Assembly (NCBI RefSeq): GCF_045037415.1
Contig: NZ_CP173438.1
Origin: Escherichia coli
GTDB lineage: Bacteria; Pseudomonadota; Gammaproteobacteria; Enterobacterales; Enterobacteriaceae
DNA: 64,000 bases
Strand: one strand, 5' to 3'
This document shows, one piece after another, positions 9,880 through 52,504 of the stretch (positions are counted from its first letter, which is position 1; every line of letters begins with the position of its first letter). Under the pieces are notes generated by a model that ran no database searches, was not told the origin of the DNA, and worked only from the letters and a program-made list of their open reading frames with translations. The translations under genes and the position numbers were made by a program.

Positions 9880-9899
9880 CCCCGTACTTTTGTACGGGG
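9880..9899 (+). other. perfect 8-bp stem-loop in the hslVU 5' leader
   Basis: CCCCGTAC-TTTT-GTACGGGG, 35 nt upstream of the hslV ATG. Confidence 0.45.
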
Positions 9900-9934
9900 T
9901 TTGTACTCTGTATTCGTAACCAAGGGGTCAGCTC

Positions 9935-10465
9935 GTGACAACTATAGTAAGCGTACGCCGTAACGGCCATGTGGTCATCGCTGGTGATGGTCAGGCCACG
10001 TTGGGCAATACCGTAATGAAAGGCAACGTGAAAAAGGTCCGCCGTCTGTACAACGACAAAGTCATCGCGGGCTTTGCGGGCGGTACTGCGGATGCTTTTA
10101 CGCTGTTCGAACTGTTTGAACGTAAACTGGAAATGCATCAGGGCCATCTGGTCAAAGCCGCCGTTGAGCTGGCGAAAGACTGGCGTACCGATCGCATGCT
10201 GCGCAAACTTGAAGCACTGCTGGCAGTCGCGGATGAAACTGCATCGCTTATCATCACCGGTAACGGTGACGTGGTGCAGCCAGAAAACGATCTTATTGCT
10301 ATCGGCTCCGGCGGCCCTTACGCCCAGGCTGCGGCGCGCGCGCTGTTAGAAAACACTGAACTTAGCGCCCGTGAAATTGCTGAAAAGGCGTTGGATATTG
10401 CAGGCGACATTTGCATCTATACCAACCATTTCCACACCATCGAAGAATTAAGCTACAAAGCGTAA
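9935..10465 (+). CDS. hslV: ATP-dependent protease subunit HslV
   Basis: 176 aa; N-terminal Thr ([20 protein letters not shown]) typical of proteasome-like HslV. Confidence 0.95.
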
Positions 10466-23589: not shown

Positions 23590-23686
23590 GCCGGATGCGG
23601 CACAAACGCCTTATCCGGCCTACAAAAGTTTGCAAATTCAATAGATTACAGAATTCATGTAGGCCTGATAAGCGAAGCGCATCAGG
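23590..23686. repeat. REP pair (BIME) between pfkA and sbp
   Basis: GCCGGATGCGGCACAAACGCCTTATCCGGCCTAC and inverted GTAGGCCTGATAAGCGAAGCGCATCAGGC. Confidence 0.65.
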
Positions 23687-28679: not shown

Positions 28680-28816
28680 GCCTGATGCACTACGCTTATC
28701 AGGCCTACAAAACCTGTTGAATTTATGGGTTTTGTAGGCTGGATAAGGCGTTTACGCCGCATCCGGCATTTGAGCAGGATGCCTGATGCGACGCTGATAG
28801 CGTCTTATCAGGCCTA
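28680..28816. repeat. cluster of three REP elements (BIME) downstream of cpxA
   Basis: GCCTGATGCACTACGCTTATCAGGCCTAC, GTAGGCTGGATAAGGCGTTTACGCCGCATCCGGC and GCCTGATGCGACGCTGATAGCGTCTTATCAGGCCTAC. Confidence 0.65.
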
Positions 28817-37605: not shown

Positions 37606-37823
37606 GCCGGATGCGGCACAAGTGCCTTATCCGGCCTACGGGTCGGCAATAGTTGTAGGCCTGATAAGACGCGACAGCGTCGCATCAGGCATTGATTGCC
37701 GGATGCGGCACGAGTGCCTTATCCGGCCTACGGGTCAGCAACAGTTGTAGGCCTGATAAGACGCGACAGCGTCGCATCAGGCATTGATTGCCGGATGTGG
37801 CGCGAGTGCCTTATCCGGCCTAC
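37606..37823. repeat. tandem BIME array (five REP elements, 92-bp period) between rhaA and rhaD
   Basis: alternating GCCGGATGCGGCAC(A/G)AGTGCCTTATCCGGCCTAC and GTAGGCCTGATAAGACGCGACAGCGTCGCATCAGGC units at 37606, 37655, 37698, 37747 and 37790. Confidence 0.75.
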
Positions 37824-39055: not shown

Positions 39056-40450
39056 TCAGAAGAAGTATTTAAAGCGAACGCGTGCGCCGTAACGGTCATC
39101 ACTATCGTCGCCGTGTATCTTATCGCCGTCGCTATCCAGAATGGAGTAATACGTGCCGAGGTAAATATTAAAGTTCTCCATATCCATCACATTAGCGAAC
39201 TGATAAGACGCATGAATGGTGTGAATGTTGTATGTTCCTTCATCATCAATCCAGCAATCGTTATCACAAACCACGCCACTAAATTCATCAATCTTATTAT
39301 GTGCGTAGATATAACCCAGCTCGAAACGTTTCCACAGCGCGTTAATCCCAGCGGTGAAATCTTTCTCATTATTAGCATCTAAATAGGCGGTATTAAGATT
39401 AACCACGATGCCATTTTCCGGATCGGTTTTCAGGCCATTCCAGGTCATGCTCATGCCATAACCGGTACGATCGGACTGATCGACAAAATTACCCTTGCTA
39501 TCGGTATAACCATAAGCATTATTTACCACGTTCGCTTCCATCGCTGCGGAAACGGTGAATTCTTCCGTCGGCGACCAGGCAATTACCGGACGCAGATAAG
39601 CAACATTTTTCTGCTGTTCCATATCGCGTCCATGATAATTACCGTCGTTATATAAAGATGTTCCGTCTTCCAGTAACGTGTTTAATTCAAAATACCAGTT
39701 ATCGAGTTGTTTGCTGACGAGGAAATTACCGCCAGCGTTAGAACGCCCGCGGCCCTCTTTCATCATATAGATATAACCGCTGCCATCGTCATAAAGATCG
39801 TTCGCAGTATTACCGGAATGTTCAACAAAGGTATCCTGATTCAGCGGGAACATATCGTAGGCTTCAAAACGGCCTACTTTGACCTTCCAGTCGTTTTCTT
39901 TGCCAAAGAAGAAAACCGCATCATCGATATTTACTGAACCGTGCATATCCCCCAGCGGTTGTGCGGAGAACCCAGCGAAATAGCCATTATCCAGTTTTCG
40001 CATACCATCAAAACCTAACAGAATACGACCATTGAGATTCCACTGTTCATTAGTGGGATCGCTATTCACATCAGCGTTGGTCATTGCCAGCAGGCCATGA
40101 TTACTTTCCGCATCCATATTAAATTCTACGTCACCGTAGATTTTTAAATCGCCATACCCTGAAAGCAGGAGATTAGGCGGGGTGGCGTTTTTCTTCTCTG
40201 ACTCCGTCGTTGATTGACCGTTTACCGGCGTGTTGCCCTGTGCGGTTTTAATTTCGCGGATCTCGGCGGCTTGTTGTGTCTGAAGCTGTTTAACCTGCCC
40301 CTCTGCTTTTGCTGCCCGCATTTCTGCCGCTTCCAGGCGTTCTTCCAGCAATGCCATGCGTTGTTCCAGCGTTAAATGCTGTGTTTTTGCCATACCGGTA
40401 CTACATGCCAATAATAAACCGATGGCTAAAGATAATGTCGATTTTTTCAT
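39056..40450 (-). CDS. putative outer-membrane sugar-porin-like protein with N-terminal coiled-coil
   Basis: 464 aa; signal peptide MKKSTLSLAIGLLLACSTGMA, about 50 aa of heptad-like Ala/Glu/Gln-rich sequence, then an aromatic-rich region ending in the C-terminal FKYFF typical of beta-barrel OMPs; AGGGAA Shine-Dalgarno 8 nt upstream; family assignment is from memory of ScrY/RafY-type glycoporins and is uncertain. Confidence 0.65.
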   Translation of the reverse strand: MKKSTLSLAIGLLLACSTGMAKTQHLTLEQRMALLEERLEAAEMRAAKAEGQVKQLQTQQAAEIREIKTAQGNTPVNGQSTTESEKKNATPPNLLLSGYGDLKIYGDVEFNMDAESNHGLLAMTNADVNSDPTNEQWNLNGRILLGFDGMRKLDNGYFAGFSAQPLGDMHGSVNIDDAVFFFGKENDWKVKVGRFEAYDMFPLNQDTFVEHSGNTANDLYDDGSGYIYMMKEGRGRSNAGGNFLVSKQLDNWYFELNTLLEDGTSLYNDGNYHGRDMEQQKNVAYLRPVIAWSPTEEFTVSAAMEANVVNNAYGYTDSKGNFVDQSDRTGYGMSMTWNGLKTDPENGIVVNLNTAYLDANNEKDFTAGINALWKRFELGYIYAHNKIDEFSGVVCDNDCWIDDEGTYNIHTIHASYQFANVMDMENFNIYLGTYYSILDSDGDKIHGDDSDDRYGARVRFKYFF

Positions 40451-40803
40451 TATTTACGTTCCCTGAAATAAAGGAGACCCTACGCTTTCCAAAAGGAATA
40501 CGTATATAGAGAAATATAAGGTGTGCACTTTCGAATTTTTAATCCAACTTCAGCAGGCCGATGGATAGTATCCCGCCATATAATATGAGTAAATCCGCTG
40601 ATTTCCTGGAACGTGAGGAATATAACAATAGTGCCGTTTTTAACTAAATATCGTAAAAAATATTAGATATGATTCACGCTGACTCATAAGCCACAAATAT
40701 AAATAACGCTTAAACAAATTATCTGAGATATTTTAACATTCACAAAATCATTAAATAATGATACTTTATTCACAAAATTTATCCTTCACTCTGCTTTATA
40801 TTG

Positions 40804-41349
40804 TTACGACTTCGTGACATATCCGTGCTCATCACAAACCCGCCCCGCGATTACAATTAACTGAAATATTTCATCGACCATTTCGTTGTAATCGCATAAC
40901 GCTCGTGGAAATGAGTCTTCGGCCATCCAGCTTGAGTTTGCGTCCTGAAGTTGCTCTTTATCCCAGTCAGAGTACGGGACTTTATCTCTGATGCGGCGAA
41001 CGTATTTTTTAGCCTCGAGTTGATACTGGCCTGCCGAATTAATAAACGAGAAATTCATGCCGCTTTTATCCGCTTCTTTGGCTTGCGCCACCAGCGTTTC
41101 CAGTTCAGACACTTTCTTCATTGCCGCTTCTGCATCAAACTTATCTTGCGATATCAGGTTATTAATTTGTTTCGCTGAAATCATGACTGCCAGAGAGTAG
41201 TAGTGGAATGTTTTCCCTTTCGCAAACGCATCGTCTTTATAATTTTCCTGGGTGTAATATTTATCCATTTCGTTAATGGTATTACCCAACGCTACGGCAG
41301 CATCAATATAACTCACCGCCACGCCATCAATAGGTTGCAGCGCAGGCAT
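40804..41349 (-). CDS. hypothetical helical protein (K-12 yiiG position; homology unverified)
   Basis: 184-aa ORF from a GTG at 41358, or 181 aa from the ATG at 41349; no signal peptide; begins just after a hairpin downstream of fdhD. Confidence 0.45.
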   Translation of the reverse strand: MPALQPIDGVAVSYIDAAVALGNTINEMDKYYTQENYKDDAFAKGKTFHYYSLAVMISAKQINNLISQDKFDAEAAMKKVSELETLVAQAKEADKSGMNFSFINSAGQYQLEAKKYVRRIRDKVPYSDWDKEQLQDANSSWMAEDSFPRALCDYNEMVDEIFQLIVIAGRVCDEHGYVTKS

Positions 41350-41402
41350 TAACGCCACTACACGCGTTTTGTTTATAAAAAAATAACAAAATTCACGAAA
41401 TG

Positions 41403-41445: not shown

Positions 41446-42279
41446 TTAATTGCTCAAACGCTGCGGATGGGTATAAACCGTCGCCCGACCCGGTTTACAA
41501 AAGCCCACCAGCGTCAGATTACAGCGCTCAGCCACTTCTACAGCAAGTGTGGTCGCGGCAGACACCGCAAACAAAATCTCTACGCCGCACATCGCCGACT
41601 TTTGCACCATTTCATAACTGGCACGGCTGGAAACCAGCACCGCACCTTGCTGCCAGCTTTCCCCTTCTTGTGATCGGCGGCCTAACAGTTTGTCCAGCGC
41701 CACATGGCGACCCACGTCTTCATGCCCGCCGACCAGTTCGCCAGATGGCAACATCCATGCAGCGGCGTGAGTACAACCAGTCAGTTGCCCCACTGGCTGG
41801 AAATCATTGAGATGACGTAATGCATCATCCAGTTTGTTGAGATCAAACGTCTGGGTGAACGGCAGCGGCTGCACCGGTTTACCGATATCGTTAAGCTGTT
41901 CTACACCGCATACGCCACAGCCCGTACGTCCCGCCAGCGCCCGGCGACGTTCCTTCAACCCCATAAAGCGGCGGCTGGAAAGCTCAATTTGTACTTCCAG
42001 GCCATTACAGGAAGGAACGACATCCATGCCGAAGATATCGCGCGGGCTTTCGATAATTCCTTCGGAAAGCGAAAAACCGAGCGCAAAGTACTCAAGGTCT
42101 TTGGGCGACGCCATCATCACCACGTGCGAAATGCCGTTGTAGACCAGCGCAACGGGAACTTCTTCCGCCACCTCATCTAACCGTGGGTGTTGTAAATCAT
42201 CACGCCGCCATAACTCAATTTGACGAACACCTGTGATATTTGTCACATTCTCGATTTCTTTTTGCTGTGTTTTTTTCAC
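41446..42279 (-). CDS. fdhD: formate dehydrogenase sulfurtransferase/accessory protein FdhD
   Basis: 277-aa ORF divergent from fdoG. Confidence 0.92.
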
Positions 42280-42472
42280 TTTCTATTAACCAGATAAGAA
42301 CACACACACCAACATTATGGTATTCTGTTACAAACCCTTCCTGGATGGAGGGAAATTGAGCCAATTCTGGACCTTTGCGGCCCCTTCCGCAAAGAAAAAT
42401 AACTCCCACTCCCTGCACACGCAGCAAGCGAATGTAAATGGGACGTGACAATGTCGAAACAAGGAGCAATCC

Positions 42473-45400
42473 ATGCAGGTCAGCAGAAGGCAGTTCTTTA
42501 AGATCTGCGCTGGCGGTATGGCAGGCACCACGGCAGCGGCACTGGGTTTTGCACCCAGCGTAGCACTCGCGGAAACCCGGCAGTATAAACTGCTGCGCAC
42601 CCGCGAAACCCGTAATACCTGCACCTATTGTTCCGTAGGCTGTGGGCTGTTGATGTACAGCCTCGGTGACGGAGCAAAAAACGCCAAAGCATCTATCTTC
42701 CATATCGAAGGTGACCCGGATCACCCGGTCAACCGCGGAGCACTTTGTCCGAAAGGCGCTGGCCTGGTGGATTTCATCCACTCCGAAAGCCGTCTGAAGT
42801 TTCCGGAATACCGTGCGCCAGGTTCTGATAAATGGCAGCAAATCAGTTGGGAAGAGGCGTTTGATCGCATCGCCAAACTGATGAAAGAAGACCGCGATGC
42901 AAACTACATTGCGCAAAACGCCGAAGGCGTGACTGTTAACCGCTGGCTCTCCACCGGGATGCTGTGTGCTTCCGCGTCGAGCAACGAAACCGGCTATTTA
43001 ACGCAAAAATTCTCCCGCGCGCTGGGTATGCTCGCGGTCGACAACCAGGCGCGTGTCTGACACGGACCAACGGTAGCAAGTCTTGCTCCAACATTTGGTC
43101 GCGGTGCGATGACCAACCACTGGGTCGACATCAAGAATGCCAACCTCGTCGTGGTGATGGGCGGTAACGCCGCTGAAGCTCACCCGGTCGGGTTCCGCTG
43201 GGCGATGGAAGCCAAAATTCACAACGGCGCGAAGCTGATTGTGATCGATCCTCGCTTTACGCGTACAGCGGCGGTGGCTGACTACTATGCCCCTATCCGT
43301 TCCGGTACTGACATTGCTTTCCTGTCAGGCGTATTGCTGTACCTGCTGAACAATGAAAAATTCAACCGCGAATACACCGAAGCCTATACCAACGCTAGCC
43401 TGATCGTGCGTGAGGATTACGGCTTTGAAGATGGCCTGTTCACCGGCTACGACGCGGAAAAACGCAAGTACGATAAGTCCACCTGGACTTACGAACTGGA
43501 CGAAAACGGCTTCGCCAAACGCGATACTACCCTGCAACATCCACGTTGCGTGTGGAACTTGCTGAAACAGCACGTTTCCCGCTACACGCCAGATGTGGTT
43601 GAAAACATCTGCGGTACGCCAAAAGACGCATTCCTGAAAGTCTGCGAATACATCGCAGAGACCAGTGCTCACGATAAAACTGCCTCGTTCCTTTACGCCC
43701 TCGGCTGGACGCAACACTCCATCGGTGCGCAGAACATCCGTACGATGGCGATGATCCAGTTGCTGCTCGGCAATATGGGGATGGCTGGCGGCGGCGTTAA
43801 CGCCCTGCGCGGTCACTCCAATATTCAGGGGCTGACGGACCTGGGGCTGCTGTCGCAGAGTCTGCCAGGTTACATGACGCTGCCAAGCGAGAAGCAGACC
43901 GATCTGCAAACTTACCTTACCGCCAACACGCCGAAACCACTGCTGGAAGGCCAGGTTAACTACTGGGGCAACTACCCGAAATTCTTCGTCTCTATGATGA
44001 AGGCCTTCTTTGGTGATAAAGCGACGGCGGAAAATAGCTGGGGCTTTGACTGGTTGCCGAAGTGGGATAAAGGCTACGACGTCCTGCAATACTTCGAGAT
44101 GATGAAAGAGGGCAAGGTCAATGGCTATATCTGCCAGGGCTTTAACCCTGTTGCCTCATTCCCGAACAAAAACAAAGTGATCGGCTGTCTGTCGAAGCTG
44201 AAATTCCTCGTGACTATCGACCCGCTGAACACTGAAACCTCTAACTTCTGGCAGAACCACGGTGAACTGAACGAAGTTGACTCGTCGAAGATCCAGACCG
44301 AAGTGTTCCGTCTGCCATCGACCTGCTTCGCGGAAGAGAACGGTTCAATCGTTAACTCTGGTCGCTGGTTGCAGTGGCACTGGAAAGGTGCGGACGCCCC
44401 GGGGATTGCGCTGACTGATGGCGAGATCCTCTCCGGTATCTTCCTGCGCTTGCGCAAGATGTATGCCGAACAGGGTGGCGCGAACCCGGACCAGGTGCTG
44501 AACATGACCTGGAACTACGCCATCCCGCATGAGCCGAAGTCGGAAGAAGTGGCGATGGAGAGCAACGGTAAGGCGCTGGCCGATATTACCGATCCGGCAA
44601 CCGGTGCGGTTATTGTCAAGAAAGGCCAACAACTTAGCTCGTTCGCTCAACTGCGCGATGACGGTACAACCTCCTGTGGCTGCTGGATTTTCGCCGGTAG
44701 CTGGACGCCAGAAGGCAACCAGATGGCGCGTCGTGATAACGCCGATCCGTCTGGCCTCGGTAACACGCTGGGCTGGGCATGGGCATGGCCGCTTAACCGC
44801 CGCATTCTGTATAACCGCGCCTCCGCAGATCCGCAGGGTAACCCGTGGGATCCGAAGCGTCAGTTGCTGAAATGGGACGGCACTAAGTGGACCGGCTGGG
44901 ATATTCCGGACTACAGCGCAGCGCCTCCGGGCAGTGGCGTCGGGCCGTTTATCATGCAGCAGGAAGGCATGGGGCGTCTGTTTGCCCTCGATAAGATGGC
45001 GGAAGGTCCGTTCCCGGAACACTACGAGCCGTTTGAAACGCCGCTGGGAACTAACCCGCTGCATCCAAACGTTATCTCGAATCCGGCGGCGCGTATCTTT
45101 AAAGACGATGCCGAAGCATTGGGGAAAGCCGATAAGTTCCCGTATGTCGGAACCACCTATCGTCTGACCGAGCACTTCCACTACTGGACCAAACACGCGC
45201 TGTTGAACGCGATTTTGCAACCAGAGCAGTTTGTGGAAATCGGGGAGTCGCTGGCGAATAAACTTGGCATTGCCCAGGGCGATACTGTGAAAGTCTCCTC
45301 CAACCGTGGCTATATCAAAGCCAAAGCGGTAGTGACCAAACGTATTCGCACGCTGAAAGCAAACGGCAAAGATATCGATACCATCGGTATTCCGATTCAC

Positions 45401-45523
45401 TGGGGCTATGAAGGTGTTGCGAAAAAAGGCTTTATTGCCAATACGTTGACGCCATTCGTCGGTGATGCGAACACGCAGACGCCGGAGTTTAAGTCCTTCC
45501 TTGTGAATGTGGAAAAGGTGTAA
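42473..45523 (+). CDS. fdoG: formate dehydrogenase-O major subunit (selenocysteine-containing)
   Basis: ORFs 42473-43060 and 43109-45523 are in the same frame, separated only by TGA at 43058-43060, read as Sec; combined 1016 aa; Tat motif RRQFFK; N-terminal 4Fe-4S Cys cluster. Confidence 0.92.
43061..43110 (+). other. putative SECIS stem-loop directing Sec insertion at the fdoG UGA
   Basis: immediately 3' of the in-frame TGA; contains AGCAAG-T-CTTGCT inverted repeat. Confidence 0.5.
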
Positions 45524-45535
45524 CGGAGACGACAT

Positions 45536-46438
45536 ATGGCTTATCAATCGCAAGATATCATTCGTCGTTCCGCGACTAACGGTCTGACCCCCGCGCCTCA
45601 GGCGCGGGACTTCCAGGAAGAAGTGGCGAAACTCATCGACGTTACCACCTGTATCGGCTGTAAAGCCTGTCAGGTGGCGTGTTCAGAGTGGAACGACATT
45701 CGCGATACCGTCGGCAATAACATTGGGGTGTATGACAACCCCAATGATTTAAGTGCCAAATCGTGGACGGTGATGCGATTCTCGGAAGTGGAGCAGAACG
45801 ACAAACTGGAATGGCTGATCCGCAAAGACGGCTGTATGCACTGTTCCGATCCAGGCTGCCTGAAAGCATGCCCGGCGGAAGGGGCAATTATTCAGTATGC
45901 CAATGGTATCGTCGACTTCCAGTCCGAGCAGTGCATCGGCTGCGGTTATTGCATCGCAGGGTGCCCGTTCAACGTGCCACGCCTCAACCCGGAAGACAAC
46001 CGCGTCTACAAATGTACGTTGTGCGTTGACCGCGTGGTGGTTGGGCAAGAACCGGCCTGCGTGAAGACCTGCCCAACGGGCGCGATTCACTTCGGTACGA
46101 AAGAGTCGATGAAAACGCTGGCGAGCGAGCGCGTGGCGGAGCTGAAAACCCGCGGTTACGACAATGCGGGTCTGTACGATCCGGCAGGCGTCGGTGGTAC
46201 ACACGTTATGTACGTACTGCACCATGCTGACAAGCCAAATCTGTATCATGGCTTGCCGGAGAACCCGGAAATCAGCGAAACCGTGAAATTCTGGAAAGGC
46301 ATCTGGAAACCACTCGCAGCTGTTGGCTTTGCGGCTACCTTCGCAGCCAGTATCTTCCACTACGTGGGTGTCGGTCCGAACCGTGCGGATGAGGAAGAGA
46401 ATAATCTGCACGAAGAGAAAGACGAGGAGCGCAAATGA
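45536..46438 (+). CDS. fdoH: formate dehydrogenase-O iron-sulfur subunit
   Basis: 300 aa; four CxxCxxCxxxCP ferredoxin motifs; C-terminal TM anchor. Confidence 0.95.
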
Positions 46439-47070
46439 AACGACGTGACACCATCGTGCGCTACACCGCGCCGGAACGTATCAACCACTGGATCACCGCC
46501 TTCTGCTTCATCCTGGCGGCGGTGAGCGGGCTGGGCTTTTTGTTCCCGTCCTTCAACTGGTTGATGCAAATCATGGGCACACCGCAGCTGGCGCGAATTC
46601 TGCATCCGTTTGTCGGCGTGGTTATGTTTGCCTCGTTCATCATCATGTTTTTCCGTTACTGGCATCACAACCTAATCAATCGGGATGATATCTTTTGGGC
46701 GAAGAATATTCGTAAGATCGTCGTCAACGAGGAAGTAGGTGACACCGGGCGTTATAACTTCGGTCAGAAATGCGTTTTCTGGGCGGCGATTATTTTCCTG
46801 GTCCTGTTGCTGGTGAGCGGCGTGATTATCTGGCGTCCTTATTTTGCGCCTGCTTTCTCAATCCCGGTGATCCGATTCGCGTTAATGCTGCATTCATTTG
46901 CCGCAGTGGCGTTAATTGTGGTTATCATGGTGCATATCTACGCCGCCCTTTGGGTGAAAGGCACGATTACCGCCATGGTGGAAGGATGGGTGACCAGCGC
47001 ATGGGCAAAGAAACATCACCCGCGCTGGTACCGTGAGGTCCGCAAGACAACGGAAAAGAAAGCTGAATGA
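46435..47070 (+). CDS. fdoI: formate dehydrogenase-O cytochrome b556 subunit
   Basis: 211-aa four-helix membrane protein with conserved His; 4-nt overlap with fdoH. Confidence 0.95.
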
Positions 47071-47996
47071 GTATTCGCATAATCCCGCAAGATGAGCTGG
47101 GTTCGAGCGAGAAACGTACGGCGGATATGATTCCGCCGTTATTGTTCCCTCGGCTCAAGAATTTATACAACCGCCGCGCCGAGCGTCTGCGCGAGCTGGC
47201 AGAACATAATCCGCTGGGTGATTACCTGCGCTTTGCTGCGCTTATCGCCCACGCCCAGGAAGTGGTGCTGTACGACCATCCGCTGGAGATGGATCTGACC
47301 ACGCGCATTAAAGAAGCCAGCGCACAAGGCAAGCCCCCGCTGGATATTCACGTTCTGCCGCGTGATAAGCACTGGCAAAAGCTGCTGATGGCGCTGATTG
47401 CTGAGCTGAAACCTGAAATGAGCGGCCCGGCGCTGGCAGTGATTGAGAATCTGGAGAAGGCATCGACTCAGGAGCTGGAAGATATGGCCAGCGCACTGTT
47501 TGCCTCTGATTTCTCGTCCGTCAGCAGCGATAAAGCGCCGTTTATCTGGGCTGCGCTGTCGCTCTACTGGGCGCAGATGGCTAATCTGATCCCCGGCAAA
47601 GCCCGCGCTGAATACGGCGAACAACGTCAATATTGCCCGGTATGTGGCTCTATGCCGGTGTCCAGCATGGTGCAAATTGGCACCACTCAGGGTCTGCGTT
47701 ACCTGCACTGCAACCTGTGTGAAACTGAATGGCACGTAGTGCGCGTAAAATGCAGCAACTGTGAACAGAGCGGCAAACTGCATTACTGGTCGCTGGATGA
47801 CGAACAGGCCGCGATTAAAGCCGAAAGCTGCGATGACTGCGGCACTTACCTGAAGATTCTTTATCAGGAAAAAGAACCGAAAGTTGAAGCCGTGGCAGAT
47901 GACCTCGCCTCTCTGGTACTGGACGCGCGAATGGAGCAAGAAGGCTATGCCCGTAGTTCCATCAACCCGTTCCTGTTTCCGGGTGAAGGGGAGTAA
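47067..47996 (+). CDS. fdhE: formate dehydrogenase maturation protein FdhE
   Basis: 309 aa; CPVCG...CNLCETEWH...CSNCEQ...CDDCGTYLK cysteine pairs. Confidence 0.93.
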
Positions 47997-48177
47997 TCTC
48001 TGACGTTTTCCGGGTGGCGCAGGTCGCCCGGATTACAGTTCATAGGGTGTGACGACACTATCTCTCGTATTCCGCGTTACCTCCTCAAGCTATGCCGCCA
48101 GTGCCTGTTTGGCCTCAATTTTCACGCTGAGAAAATCGATAAGGATATCGATATCAAATAGCCAAATCTTTTTGCCA

Positions 48178-48396
48178 TTACCATTTCTCGCGCAGCTTAC
48201 GCAGGTATTCGACACCATCTTCCTCACACCCTTGCCAGATGCCAGGAACACTGGTTCTTGCTGTTTGCGATTGATTTACCAGGTATTGATCTACCGCTTC
48301 CCGTAATAGGTCTGCACGCGGAAGATTACGCTGCACCTCAAGATCATCAAGTTGCTTAATCACCTCATTCGATAAATCGAGTAAAATTCTGCTCAT
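48178..48396 (-). CDS. ribbon-helix-helix (CopG-like) DNA-binding protein, yiiF-like
   Basis: [39 protein letters not shown] has the RHH beta-strand/helix pattern; 72 aa from the ATG at 48396 (alternative starts 48402, 48420); paralogous to the ORF at 50508-50726. Confidence 0.75.
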
Positions 48397-48510
48397 ATCC
48401 ATACCTGCCAGAGGGTTCATAAATATCTCGCCAATATCATTTTGAATCTATGGAGAGAAAAGTACCCTTGTCGAATCTTTAAAGAAAGCGCATTTACGCA
48501 TCACTTTTTA

Positions 48511-48556
48511 TTTTTGCGAGGCGTTTTCCAGATACGATGTAACAGTTGCAGTTATT
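48511..48556. promoter_or_regulatory. conserved promoter/operator-like motif, copy A
   Basis: TTTTTGCGAGGCGTTTTCCAGATACGATGTAACAGTTGCAGTTATT, recurring at 50820-50866 and in part at 52483-52504. Confidence 0.4.
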
Positions 48557-48709
48557 ACGAAAACCAGTAAAAAATGGAAGTGAAAACAGTCGTGTGAAAA
48601 TTTCTACTCTTTCTGAATTTACTCTATAAAGTTGCCTTTCTCACATCCAATAGCTTAATGTCATCTACCAAGAAAAAACGATAAGTCGTCAGGGAACGGA
48701 ACAGATATA

Positions 48710-49558
48710 ATGAATAAAAACGAATCAATTTCTTACACCGAAATGCAAAAATTTTTTGCCAGAGAAATTAAGGAAGTAGGCGGTAGGCCCATCACTTCTA
48801 AGAATTTAGAGTTAAGTCTGCTACCCATTCACGCCAGGGAAAACCTTTCTGCGCCAGAAATGCCGTGGTATACCGAAGTTAATGATATCTATATGGAGTT
48901 CAGACGCTCACCATTCTGGATGGTTGCCGGTTATGTATTCCTGGGATTTATGCTTTCACTACTTTCCATCTCGATATTATCTATTGTTGCATTCTCATTT
49001 TATGAGATGGGCTTTAATAGTGACTTGTTATTTCTGTATCTACTTGCATTTGTGCTTGGCTGTTTTATATTACCTGGCGCTGCAAAAATTGCTTTTTTCA
49101 CGCCACATTATCTTCCTATAAGATTTAACAGAAAAACACAAAAAATTTATGTTTCAGATTTAATTATTGAAGGCAATATCTTCTTTGGAAAAATAAAACT
49201 CACTTTTCATGAATATGACTGGAAAGATGTTGAAGGTTGGGAGGTGAGTAGACATTTCAGTAAAAGTATGCCTTACAATGGATTACATCTGGTAGTTAAT
49301 AGAGAAAATGATATAAATGCACTGCGACAGACACGCGTTTATACAACCCGTGCACCGTGGAGTGCACAAGAAATGGCAAGACAAAAGAACTATATCCCCC
49401 AAATATGGCTTTATTGCCATAATTATATGGCTTATAAAACTGTGTCTGGTGCAAAGAACAAACCACAACCATTTATTTTTTTAAGAAACAATTGGCTATT
49501 TAAATGGCCAAAAGAAATGGATAAACGTTCCAGAAGCTCAAAGATACTGTCTGAATAA
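48710..49558 (+). CDS. hypothetical membrane protein (two adjacent TM helices), unknown family
   Basis: 282-aa ORF in low-GC DNA (first 200 nt of the ORF about 38% GC by hand count); TM hairpin FWMVAGYVFLGFMLSLLSISILSIVAFSF / LLFLYLLAFVLGCFILPGAAKIAFF; purine-rich SD-like stretch upstream; no family recognised. Confidence 0.6.
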   Translation: MNKNESISYTEMQKFFAREIKEVGGRPITSKNLELSLLPIHARENLSAPEMPWYTEVNDIYMEFRRSPFWMVAGYVFLGFMLSLLSISILSIVAFSFYEMGFNSDLLFLYLLAFVLGCFILPGAAKIAFFTPHYLPIRFNRKTQKIYVSDLIIEGNIFFGKIKLTFHEYDWKDVEGWEVSRHFSKSMPYNGLHLVVNRENDINALRQTRVYTTRAPWSAQEMARQKNYIPQIWLYCHNYMAYKTVSGAKNKPQPFIFLRNNWLFKWPKEMDKRSRSSKILSE

Positions 49559-49582
49559 GCATAATAATGAAGGATTTCGACT

Positions 49583-50323
49583 ATGATTAACAAACTTACT
49601 CTTCCTTGGCCGGTATTATTTTTAGAATTTTTTGTGCGAGAAGTTGCCTTTAAGGGTAAGGGAATTGTTCGTTCTACATTACCAGCAGATGCCCATTTTT
49701 ATACCGGTGGGTCAAAAGCCCTGCGTTATCACCTACAACCAGGAAACCAATGGCCAAACTATATATGGCATGATGATATAGGTGATATTGTACCGTTTCC
49801 TCTACCCTCACTTCCGCTTACATTTACCGCTAACCGACCCACATTTAATTCCAGAGAATTAGCGGATAAATGGATGAAGGATAATATTCATACCGCTGTC
49901 ATCATGGCGGGGGAATTTCTGTCTGCTAATGAATGGATTCGCCGCAAAAACCAGCTTAAAACTAGTGTACACCCTGCGTCAGTTGCTTCTTTCGCACCCT
50001 ATGGCTTTAACATTAACCAGTGTGATGACGATGGCAATCTTTGGACTAATTTCCCACGTCCCCACATCAAATTAAAAATCGCACCAGGAAAAACAGCTTG
50101 TTTTCTCTGCCGCCGGGAAGAGCTTTTATTTGGTTATGATGAAGCACATAATCACTACCAGCCGAATCTTAATCTGGTTTTATTTGTGAAAAATCATGGG
50201 TTGCATAAGGATGTTTACCTAAAATCTCATGACGATAAAAGTGAATACGATAGCAGAATATTATGTAACGAAAAATTTACCACTTATGATTTCCGTAAAA
50301 ACCGGTCCAGATACAGCTTTTGA
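49583..50323 (+). CDS. hypothetical soluble protein, unknown family
   Basis: 246-aa ORF starting 24 nt after the upstream gene with a GAAGGA Shine-Dalgarno; AT-rich codon usage; no motif recognised. Confidence 0.6.
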   Translation: MINKLTLPWPVLFLEFFVREVAFKGKGIVRSTLPADAHFYTGGSKALRYHLQPGNQWPNYIWHDDIGDIVPFPLPSLPLTFTANRPTFNSRELADKWMKDNIHTAVIMAGEFLSANEWIRRKNQLKTSVHPASVASFAPYGFNINQCDDDGNLWTNFPRPHIKLKIAPGKTACFLCRREELLFGYDEAHNHYQPNLNLVLFVKNHGLHKDVYLKSHDDKSEYDSRILCNEKFTTYDFRKNRSRYSF

Positions 50324-50507
50324 TAGTTTATTATCCTGGATGATATCAGGAGCGATATCTATAAAGTTTATGCATTCCCTGTGATCAATTTTTCCTGTTA
50401 GTGAGCACAAATTCAATCTGATTGATGCCAGAATAAAGGCATCTGGCATGTTGATTTTATGTTCCAGAATGACAAAACATTGCTGTTAATAAGCACGACT
50501 CTTTTTG

Positions 50508-50726
50508 TCATTCCTCATGCCACTTACCCTGTTCTTCAACACCAACTACCTCACCCCTTTGCCTGTCACTTTTTGCCTTACGCACCGGAAATTGCTGACG
50601 CTCCAGATATTGCTCTACCGCTTCGCGTAAAATTGCAGAGCGCGAAACCTTACGCCAGCCCCGAAGCTTGTTCAGCCGTTTAATTGCCTCTTCTGATAAA
50701 TGAAGAAAAACCGTATTCATCGCCAT
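50508..50726 (-). CDS. ribbon-helix-helix (CopG-like) DNA-binding protein, yiiE-like
   Basis: MAMNTVFLHLSEEAIKRLNKLRGWRKVSRSAILREAVEQYL; 72 aa from the ATG at 50726 (alternatives 50720, 50753). Confidence 0.75.
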   Translation of the reverse strand: MAMNTVFLHLSEEAIKRLNKLRGWRKVSRSAILREAVEQYLERQQFPVRKAKSDRQRGEVVGVEEQGKWHEE

Positions 50727-50819
50727 TGCCACCACCTTACATATATTACTCATTAATGTATGTGCGAAAATTACGCCGAAAAATCATTTAAAAAAAGCGG
50801 ATTTTTGCATGTCGTTTTG

Positions 50820-50866
50820 TTTTTGCGAGACTGCATCCAAAGATAATGTAACAGTTGCAGTTATTT
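50820..50866. promoter_or_regulatory. conserved promoter/operator-like motif, copy B
   Basis: TTTTTGCGAGACTGCATCCAAAGATAATGTAACAGTTGCAGTTATTT; shares TTTTTGCGAG and ATGTAACAGTTGCAGTTATT with copy A. Confidence 0.4.
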
Positions 50867-51122
50867 CAATTGTTACTCAAAAATGGTTTATTACTTTTAA
50901 TTAAGCGGGGGCACATCTACAGAAAAGAAACAACAAATAATAAGGATGAATTATGGATGCTATAAATATTTTATATTCAAGAATATTTTTTTGATTGGGT
51001 CTTCATTTGCTTCATCAGGATGGTGTACCCGAAAAAGTCAGCAGCTTTACCGCACCAGGGGTTAAGGTGAAATCTACCATTCATAACGACCGGTCAGTGC
51101 CGCACCAACCGGTCTTTAATTG

Positions 51123-51401
51123 TTAGTAGTAGTAAATTTGTGGATAACAGTCCGGGAACCAGACGATTCCTTCCGGATCATCCCCCTGCATTACCCGATG
51201 ACATTGGCGTCGATCATCTGCGCGACGGCGAAGCGTAGTATAGAGCCGCTTCCATTCATGATCGCCCGGTGTACTGTAGTTTACCCAACAATCCATTGAA
51301 GGGTGACGCCATTTACCTGTAAGTGTTGGGATCCCTGAATGCTTATGCGGCTTCGCTTTACCATTACGATCCCTATCTTTACGCGTATTAAACGTGGACA
51401 T
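51123..51401 (-). CDS. hypothetical small basic Cys/His-rich protein
   Basis: 92-aa ORF; no recognisable family; may be a fragment. Confidence 0.3.
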   Translation of the reverse strand: MSTFNTRKDRDRNGKAKPHKHSGIPTLTGKWRHPSMDCWVNYSTPGDHEWKRLYTTLRRRADDRRQCHRVMQGDDPEGIVWFPDCYPQIYYY

Positions 51402-51462
51402 TTTTAGTCTCCTGTTAAGAGTTCTAAAAATGTGCTTCCTTAAAATAGTTCATCATTTTCCC

Positions 51463-51675
51463 TTAATTCGCATAGCGTGCTTTTGCACGAATTTCCGATA
51501 CGCGGGGACCATTATGATAGCGTCGATGCCCACACATCCAACAAGAACAAATACAGGGAGTACGAAAGCAAATACCTGATGCTTTTTTGCTTCCATCGCC
51601 TGCAGTGCGATAACGACAGCGGATTTTTTTTAATCGCACCATATGATGGCGACGTTCAGCACGATTACGGGTCAT
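51463..51675 (-). CDS. hypothetical small basic Cys-rich protein (possible zinc ribbon)
   Basis: 70-aa ORF with CxC...CxxC spacing (CICSCWMCGH); no recognisable family. Confidence 0.3.
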   Translation of the reverse strand: MTRNRAERRHHMVRLKKIRCRYRTAGDGSKKASGICFRTPCICSCWMCGHRRYHNGPRVSEIRAKARYAN

Positions 51676-51759
51676 AGCAAAACTCCTGAACAGGCGGCAC
51701 TATGCCGCTTTCATAGGAGTTCTGAATGCTGGTGCTTTCTGTATGGCATAACCATGCCT

Positions 51760-52050
51760 CTAACGGTTAAGTGCTTGCAGCACATGTTGCGGATCATTGG
51801 CAATCGCTCGCAGCAAAGCCTTTGCAGGCCCGGTCGGTGAACGTCGCCCCTGCTCCCAGTTACGCAACGTGTCTACGCTTACGGAAATAAGATCGGCAAA
51901 TTTAGATTGTGACAACCCTGAAGCGCGGCGTATTTCTTTGATTTTCATAGCATCAACTTCAAAAGTCCGTGAAGGCTGTCGCGTTCCTTCAATAATTTCA
52001 TTCATCTGGGCCATGCTGTGAGTCAACCGCTCAAAAAGTGCCTTATCCAT
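51760..52050 (-). CDS. HTH (XRE-type) antitoxin, HigA-like
   Basis: 96 aa; helix-turn-helix IRRASGLSQSKFADLISVSVDTLRNWEQGRR; ATG directly abuts the upstream toxin stop (TAA-ATG). Confidence 0.75.
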   Translation of the reverse strand: MDKALFERLTHSMAQMNEIIEGTRQPSRTFEVDAMKIKEIRRASGLSQSKFADLISVSVDTLRNWEQGRRSPTGPAKALLRAIANDPQHVLQALNR

Positions 52051-52362
52051 TTACCACCTCGTATTTAACAACCGGAGCATTGCTTTTTCCTGGGGAGACA
52101 GATCATCTTTAATACCCTTACGATAAATAAGCAGTAATCTGATCTCATAATGTTTAACCTGATGAAAGTAAATAACCCTGACACCAGCACGTTTCCCCTT
52201 TCCTCCTGAGACCCATCGAACCTTTCTTAACCCACCAGTTTCAGGTATTACCTCACCATAGTCAGGATTCAAGGCCAGGAAAAACTGAAAACGACTGAAT
52301 TCATCGTCGTTCAGCAGTTTTTGAACATCTTCAGTAAAAATTTCCGTTTCGATGAAGAGCAT
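52051..52362 (-). CDS. RelE/ParE-superfamily toxin, HigB-like (toxin-first arrangement)
   Basis: 103 aa, MLFIETEIFTEDVQKLLNDDEF...GGLRKVRW...GVRVIYFH...IRLLLIYRKG; size, basic patches and coupling to a downstream HTH partner. Confidence 0.7.
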   Translation of the reverse strand: MLFIETEIFTEDVQKLLNDDEFSRFQFFLALNPDYGEVIPETGGLRKVRWVSGGKGKRAGVRVIYFHQVKHYEIRLLLIYRKGIKDDLSPQEKAMLRLLNTRW

Positions 52363-52482
52363 AATTATACGCCATTGGCTTAGAGCAACAATCCTTTTTG
52401 TACGTCATTGACGTACCATTGAAACCACTAGCTTACTGATAGTGCTCCAGCAAAACCACGTCTCTGCCGGGTTTGTCTTTAC

Positions 52483-52504
52483 ATTTGCGAGGCGCTTTCC
52501 AGAT
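52483..52504. promoter_or_regulatory. conserved promoter/operator-like motif, partial copy C
   Basis: ATTTGCGAGGCGCTTTCCAGAT, one mismatch to the first half of copy A. Confidence 0.35.

Follow-up and report, generated by a model that had tools for sequence, protein, structure and literature searches.

We analysed a 64,000-nt stretch of an Escherichia coli genome (contig NZ_CP173438.1, assembly GCF_045037415.1; hereafter the window), with attention to an in-frame TGA codon in fdoG, the gene for the catalytic subunit of formate dehydrogenase-O (Fdh-O). Over its full 64,000 bases, the window matches the reverse complement of positions 4435368-4499367 of the chromosome of E. coli strain 4/1-1 (NZ_CP023844.1) with 100% identity and no gaps. 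Translation of 42473-45523 gives 1,017 codons with a single internal stop, the TGA at 43058-43060, which is codon 196. The two open reading frames (ORFs) found mechanically at this locus, 42473..43060 (195 aa) and 43109..45523 (804 aa), lie in one frame, as the initial annotation had noted: their starts are offset by 636 nt (43109-42473 = 212 x 3), and reading through the TGA joins both pieces into a 1,016-aa FdoG. Codon 196 is almost certainly translated as selenocysteine (Sec), which was also the proposal of the initial annotation, in preference to a pseudogene break. In alignments, the codon falls on Sec196 of FdnG and on Sec140 of FdhF; a selenocysteine insertion sequence (SECIS) comes after it, and selA, selB and selC are present in the genome.

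The identity of the gene is clear. FdoG matches the NCBIfam model TIGR01553 (FdnG/FdoG type) over residues 2-1015 with 1573.2 bits, far above the equivalog cut-off of 814.2. It is the same gene as fdoG of strain K-12 (b3894; 3,051 nt) in the same locus core, and the two differ by strain-level polymorphism only (97.5% nucleotide identity, 75 substitutions and 3 amino acid differences over 1,016 residues), whereas the regions flanking the locus core differ. Gene positions 511-665, which include the UGA and the SECIS, contain no nucleotide difference from K-12. Of 5426 complete E. coli genomes, 5425 contain the 3.3-kb fdoG region, and as many contain the 86 nt around the TGA, for which 5320 records show at least 99% identity (equivalent to zero mismatches). 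A true nonsense mutation that turned fdoG into a pseudogene in this strain would fit the two pieces in the mechanical ORF list and the many public annotations that hold two proteins, but it is highly improbable: the 86-nt segment is present in nearly every complete genome of the species, the protein is conserved on both flanks of the codon as the K-12 comparison shows, this codon corresponds to Sec in the structure solved for FdnG, and a SECIS follows it.

The best match of FdoG in the Protein Data Bank is FdnG of entry 1KQF (1kqf_A; 1901 bits, residues 1-1015), and residue 196 of that chain, given as X in the sequence file, falls on the TGA in the context ARV-X-HGPTVASLAPTFGRGAMTNHW. In the alignment with selenoprotein formate dehydrogenases that the initial annotation had proposed as a check, the TGA lies in the Sec column and not at a non-Sec position; U196 of FdoG, U196 of FdnG and U140 of FdhF fall into a single column within the motif ARV-U-HGP(T/S)VA. 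The active-site Sec position of FdoG is followed by His (HGPTV). Sec-containing periplasmic formate dehydrogenases from other bacteria, such as FdhA of Desulfovibrio (6SDR and 8CM4), are also full-length homologues (~930 bits), with Sec aligned in AR(V/I)-U-H(G/S)PTV. These alignments agree with published protein data: FdoG and FdnG each contain one UGA-encoded Sec at position 196, and the peptide VU196HGPTVASLAPTFGR was found by mass spectrometry (MS) in derivatives of K-12 (PMC3636253).

The same data bear on the possibility that the locus encodes two separate polypeptides, a 195-aa protein with the Fe-S site and signal peptide and an 804-aa molybdopterin protein. An ATG at 43109 does open the second piece, and both fragments stand in databases. 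Against this, FdnG of 1KQF is one chain of 1,015 residues whose alignment runs through the junction from one end to the other, the 48 nt from the TGA to the ATG encode the conserved motif HGPTVASLAPTFGRGA, the MS peptide crosses the junction, and a single FdoG band of ~110 kDa carries this junction peptide (PMC3636253). We therefore regard two independent products as having a negligible probability, and a single FdoG chain with Sec196 as the reading to be retained.

The RNA downstream of the codon belongs to a known SECIS family. Rfam model RF01989 (SECIS_3) matches 43055-43113 over its full length (1-59) with 84.3 bits (gathering score, 63; E 1.8e-19), and this is the top Rfam match of the whole window (E 1.4e-18 at that scale). 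The candidate SECIS named in the initial annotation is upheld by this match and by the covariation described below, its inverted repeat being the apical stem of the element. In the predicted structure, 43075-43079 pair with 43083-43087 (5 bp) and close a loop of G23-U24-C25 (43080-43082), with a bulged U17 (43074) and a GG/CC stem below; here and hereafter, SECIS nucleotides are numbered from the U of UGA. According to a review, the minimal bacterial SECIS is a 17-nt upper stem-loop starting 11 nt past the UGA, with the bulged U17 and the loop G23/U24 as the essential determinants for SelB (PMC8659212). Nucleotide 17 of the fdoG element is U and nucleotides 23-24 are GU (43080-43081), and all three E. 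coli SECIS elements (fdoG, fdnG and fdhF) have them at the same distances from the UGA. Because these positions coincide with the published SelB determinants, the centre of the repeat corresponds to the G23-U24 loop.

The repeat named in the initial annotation exists (AGCAAG, 43075-43080; T, 43081; CTTGCT, 43082-43087), but it starts 15 nt past the TGA and not directly after it. In the window, 19 perfect 6+6 repeats with a 1-nt spacer are present where ~16 (64000/4096) are expected, so that the palindrome alone is at chance level; the departure from chance lies in the covariance-model match to SECIS_3. The 1-nt hairpin loop that it would imply is sterically impossible; five pairs close the G-U-C loop instead. 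An assignment of the fdoG element to SECIS_2, the fdhF type, was likewise rejected, as this model scores 28.1 bits against a gathering score of 70, leaving SECIS_3.

Comparison with related elements places the fdoG SECIS closest to that of fdnG. The K-12 fdnG SECIS (RF01989) is identical over 71 nt, has the same score of 84.3 bits and serves the same Sec196 position, whereas the gene differs in belonging to the paralogous, nitrate-inducible operon for formate dehydrogenase-N (Fdh-N). The fdhF SECIS (RF01988, SECIS_2; 87.1 bits in K-12), the most used experimental model (PMC8659212), shares the GG/CC stem 11 nt past the UGA, U17, G23-U24 and the UGA-CAC-GG start. It differs in its stem, with U18-A29 where fdoG has A18-U30, fdoG having one extra base pair; the predicted loop is of 3 nt in fdoG and of 4 nt in fdhF, and the lower stems differ. 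The SECIS of Desulfovibrio-type loci (L028, L061) is divergent, with GGCUCUGG in the loop region, and the subunit partners encoded there differ as well. In the open-access literature, we found no paper on the structure of the fdnG/fdoG SECIS, and PMC4513850 did not contain the structural details looked for.

To follow base pairing across species, the pattern CGNGTNTGACAYGGNCCNACNGT was scanned in one genome per species, which gave at least 120 loci and 77 distinct 62-nt segments; the following figures apply to these 77 sequences, from many genera, among the matches listed. In the apical helix (43072-43079 with 43083-43089), 97.8% of the cells are paired. Compensatory double changes occur at four of the seven apical pairs, mostly at third codon positions; 43078:43084 appears as A-U, C-G or G-C and 43075:43087 as G-C, A-U or C-G. 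None of 500 shuffles reached the observed covariation score of this helix, and sliding the 3' partners by 1-3 columns reduced the apical pairing to 28-50%. The loop U at 43081, a third codon position, is invariant in all 77 sequences, and conservation of the loop G is 90% or higher. Compensatory base changes in the homologues thus support the apical stem.

A second indication comes from synonymous sites. Between the fdoG of the window and the fdnG of K-12, identity is 76.8% at the protein level and 74.8% at the DNA level, and their longest identical run, 71 nt at 43055-43125, is twice as long as the next longest. Within this run, the two genes use identical codons at 20 of the 20 degenerate positions where the amino acid agrees, the background being 57.7% (0.577^20, ~2e-5). 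In 27 fdoG/fdnG sequences from Enterobacterales, the codons for invariant amino acids are essentially fixed from 43055 to ~43123, whereas two to five codons are used in the flanks. The frozen block is seen in both paralogues, in genera including Photorhabdus, Providencia, Yersinia and Escherichia. Gene conversion was considered as the source of the fdoG/fdnG identity and ruled out: distant genera have the same 62 nt, and this cross-genus identity therefore points to purifying selection.

No result contradicts the explanation by Sec insertion; the limits of the evidence are the following. Columns 1-20 of the alignment, including the UGA and U17, were partly fixed by the search pattern, and their invariance is uninformative. 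The lower helix is 81-84% paired in the same 77 sequences, with almost no double changes and with a best register that depends on the lineage, and it is only weakly supported by these sequences. The lower stem of the fdoG element is imperfect: in the Rfam register, its pairs at model positions 8:48 and 12:44 are non-canonical, and pairing improves when the register is shifted. No single register for this stem is supported, since the Rfam one leaves these two pairs non-canonical here and the shifted one pairs worse in most other lineages. The folding energy was no better than that of shuffled sequences for 53 nt (z -0.67), 59 nt (z -0.77) or 84 nt (z +0.25). The folding check proposed in the initial annotation thus does predict a hairpin, but its energy fails to discriminate. 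The 18-nt minihelix gave z -2.06 and the fdhF control z -1.23; folding energy was rejected as a criterion, this positive control doing no better.

The non-significant energy would also fit an explanation in which the UGA is read by a near-cognate tRNA (for Trp or Cys), or passed by a frameshift, without Sec machinery, the hairpin being incidental. Stop contexts of the type UGA-C, as at codon 196, are commonly considered leaky. However, selection on the hairpin is evident from the covariation and from the frozen synonymous sites, and a frameshift is unneeded, both ORF pieces sharing one frame. Moreover, Cys was never found at position 196, and without Sec-tRNA(Sec) translation terminates at UGA196 (PMC3636253, citing earlier work for the latter). 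Ordinary read-through is accordingly very unlikely. It is, like the pseudogene and the two polypeptides, contradicted by several results, and Sec insertion directed by the SECIS is the explanation that we adopt.

The machinery for such insertion is available. The absence of selA, selB or selC, which the initial annotation had named as an argument against Sec, does not apply: in NZ_CP023844.1, the genome that is identical to the window, selB lies at 4111436-4113280, selA at 4113277-4114668 and the gene for tRNA-Sec (selC) at 4191803-4191897. Among the complete E. coli genomes, selAB and selD are each present in 5425 of 5426 and selC in 5424 of 5426; in the NZ_CP023844.1 record itself, selD was not located. 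A tRNA scan of the 64-kb window detected none, selC being located elsewhere in the genome.

The present analysis shows the frame, the homology, the Sec alignment, the membership in a SECIS family, the covariation of the stem, the synonymous-site constraint and the presence of selA, selB and selC. For the binding of SelB, the actual insertion of Sec and the competition with release factor 2 (RF2), we draw on the literature or infer the steps, and the mechanism may be outlined as follows. The mRNA directly 3' of the UGA would fold into the SECIS hairpin (43055-43110), whose apical minihelix (43072-43089) would present two features, a bulged U that lies 17 nt from the initial base of the UGA and the G-U at nucleotides 23-24. 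SelB, together with GTP and Sec-tRNA(Sec), the product of selC charged through SelA and SelD, would bind this minihelix, and the tethered complex, competing with RF2, would deliver Sec to the UGA. The hairpin would then be unwound by the ribosome and translated as HGPTVASLAPTFGRG. The expected product is a 1,016-aa molybdo-selenoprotein, exported by the twin-arginine translocation (Tat) pathway, with Sec196 at its active site. Two other parts of the translation fit such a protein. The twin-arginine motif SRRQFFK is present at residues 4-10, and the N-terminus is probably a Tat signal cleaved after ALA, to judge from the known Tat consensus. C50, C53 and C57 lie within NTCTYCSVGC; Cys50, Cys53 and Cys57 are the ligands of the [4Fe-4S] cluster (PMC3636253). 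The features of the locus are collected in Table 1.

Table 1. Features of the fdoG locus in the 64,000-nt window (PGAP, Prokaryotic Genome Annotation Pipeline)
Feature	Position	Strand	Basis or remarks
fdhD, divergent accessory sulfurtransferase	41446..42279	-	TIGR00129, 340 bits; PGAP annotation
fdoG, catalytic (alpha) subunit of formate dehydrogenase-O	42473..45523	+	One selenoprotein frame including the UGA
Tat signal peptide of FdoG, predicted	42473..42571	+	Approximately residues 1-33, MQVSRRQFFK...VALA
SECIS element, inside the coding sequence	43055..43113 (extended hairpin 43055-43110)	+	Rfam RF01989 SECIS_3
UGA codon 196, Sec, Mo-ligand residue of the active site	43058..43060	+	Alignment with FdnG and FdhF; MS peptide (PMC3636253)
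Apical SECIS minihelix, putative SelB-binding part	43072..43089	+	GG/CC stem, bulged U17, 5-bp stem, G-U-C loop
fdoH, iron-sulfur (beta) subunit	45536..46438	+	NCBIfam TIGR01582, 477.7 bits; PGAP annotation
fdoI, cytochrome b556 (gamma) subunit	46435..47070	+	NF007924, 453 bits (cut-off 341)
fdhE, formate dehydrogenase accessory protein	47067..47996	+	NF002925, 602 bits

The core gene order, with fdhD divergent from fdoG-fdoH-fdoI-fdhE, matches that of K-12 (b3891-b3895). The product of fdoI passes model NF007924 and reaches only 243.6 bits with the FdnI model NF007558, under the cut-off of 339; the operon is therefore that of Fdh-O rather than Fdh-N. In the leader and start region of fdoG (42304-42502, + strand), the Rfam family RF02778 (FdoG-1 5' UTR thermometer, UTR denoting untranslated region) gave a sub-threshold match (32 bits, E 5e-5; gathering score, 50), of which only the 3' half, surrounding the start codon and the ribosome-binding site, aligns well.

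Outside this core, the neighbourhood differs from that of K-12. The interval between fdhD and rhaM (39056-41358, - strand) contains a gene for a carbohydrate porin (39056-40450) and a truncated pseudogene of DUF3829/yiiG (40804-41358), where K-12 has an intact yiiG beside fdhD, followed by frvR, frvX and frvB. The region 3' of fdhE (48049-52500) is strain-variable and encodes CopG-family regulators, a DUF6708 protein (48710-49558), hypothetical proteins (e.g. 49583-50323) and a NadS-family protein; its K-12 counterpart holds yiiF and yiiE only. The genome has a second copy of DUF6708 at another site, a pseudogene that contains an internal stop. Several E. coli genomes that are 100% identical over 30000-54999 match this region in two pieces, with ~777 or ~1,890 extra bases between them. 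At least some of these genomes carry an ISEc53 (ISL3-like) transposase, which indicates an insertion that is absent from the window.

Other RNA elements were detected by Rfam at a distance from fdoG. Three naRNA4 (CssrE) matches are above the threshold (28737-28814, + strand; 37658-37728 and 37750-37820, both - strand) and by position lie in the cpxA-yiiM and rhaA-rhaD intervals. The leader of ribosomal protein L31 (5216-5268, - strand), which adjoins rpmE, and the ClpQY (hslVU) promoter element (9880-9937, + strand) are above the threshold as well, and the small RNA ES036 (CssrF; 23625-23666, + strand) is barely so (37.9 versus 37.6).

Regarding the annotation of fdoG, RefSeq/PGAP gives one unflagged coding sequence (CDS) of 3,051 nt (NZ_CP023844.1 4453845-4456895), and the curated K-12 record likewise has one CDS. 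The exact 195-aa and 804-aa fragments are each found on at least 1,000 contigs of public collections. The initial annotation expected automated pipelines to split the gene or to call it a pseudogene, which is therefore correct for other pipelines and incorrect for current RefSeq/PGAP. Since the exact fragments stand as separate public proteins, it is gene callers unaware of Sec that split fdoG. The split halves (42473-43057 and 43109-45520) fall into protein clusters of 3382 and 6687 members, respectively, and in Cronobacter and Hafnia some of the 195-aa N-terminal pieces bear the name 'sulfate ABC transporter substrate-binding protein', which is clearly a mistake in annotation. For every E. 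coli genome listed, RefSeq/PGAP names the gene 'fdnG, formate dehydrogenase-N subunit alpha', although the locus is fdoGHI-fdhE and the curated K-12 name is fdoG; the label is that of model TIGR01553, whose title it follows.

In practical terms, fdoG should stay a single CDS, annotated with a translation exception at 43058-43060, while thousands of database entries still hold the 195-aa and 804-aa halves separately, some of them misnamed. The gene also serves as a positive control for genome scans: a palindrome past a TGA, together with folding energy, is insufficient, and the decisive evidence comes from the covariance model, covariation and synonymous-site conservation.

The fdoG gene is intact, and Sec196 and its SECIS were already known, being one of the three classic selenoprotein cases of E. 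coli; biologically, the case of Sec196 itself brings nothing new. The sole residual interest lies in the constraint over the extended hairpin and a few codons beyond it, which is larger than the 17-nt minimal element needs. From these comparisons, we consider it possible, though rather doubtful, that selection on the SECIS RNA extends well past the SelB-binding minihelix to cover 43055-~43123. If this is true, the lower stem and the 3' flank would have a further function in Enterobacterales, which may be to time the exposure of the UGA relative to RF2 or to meet a need for exact spacing on the ribosome.

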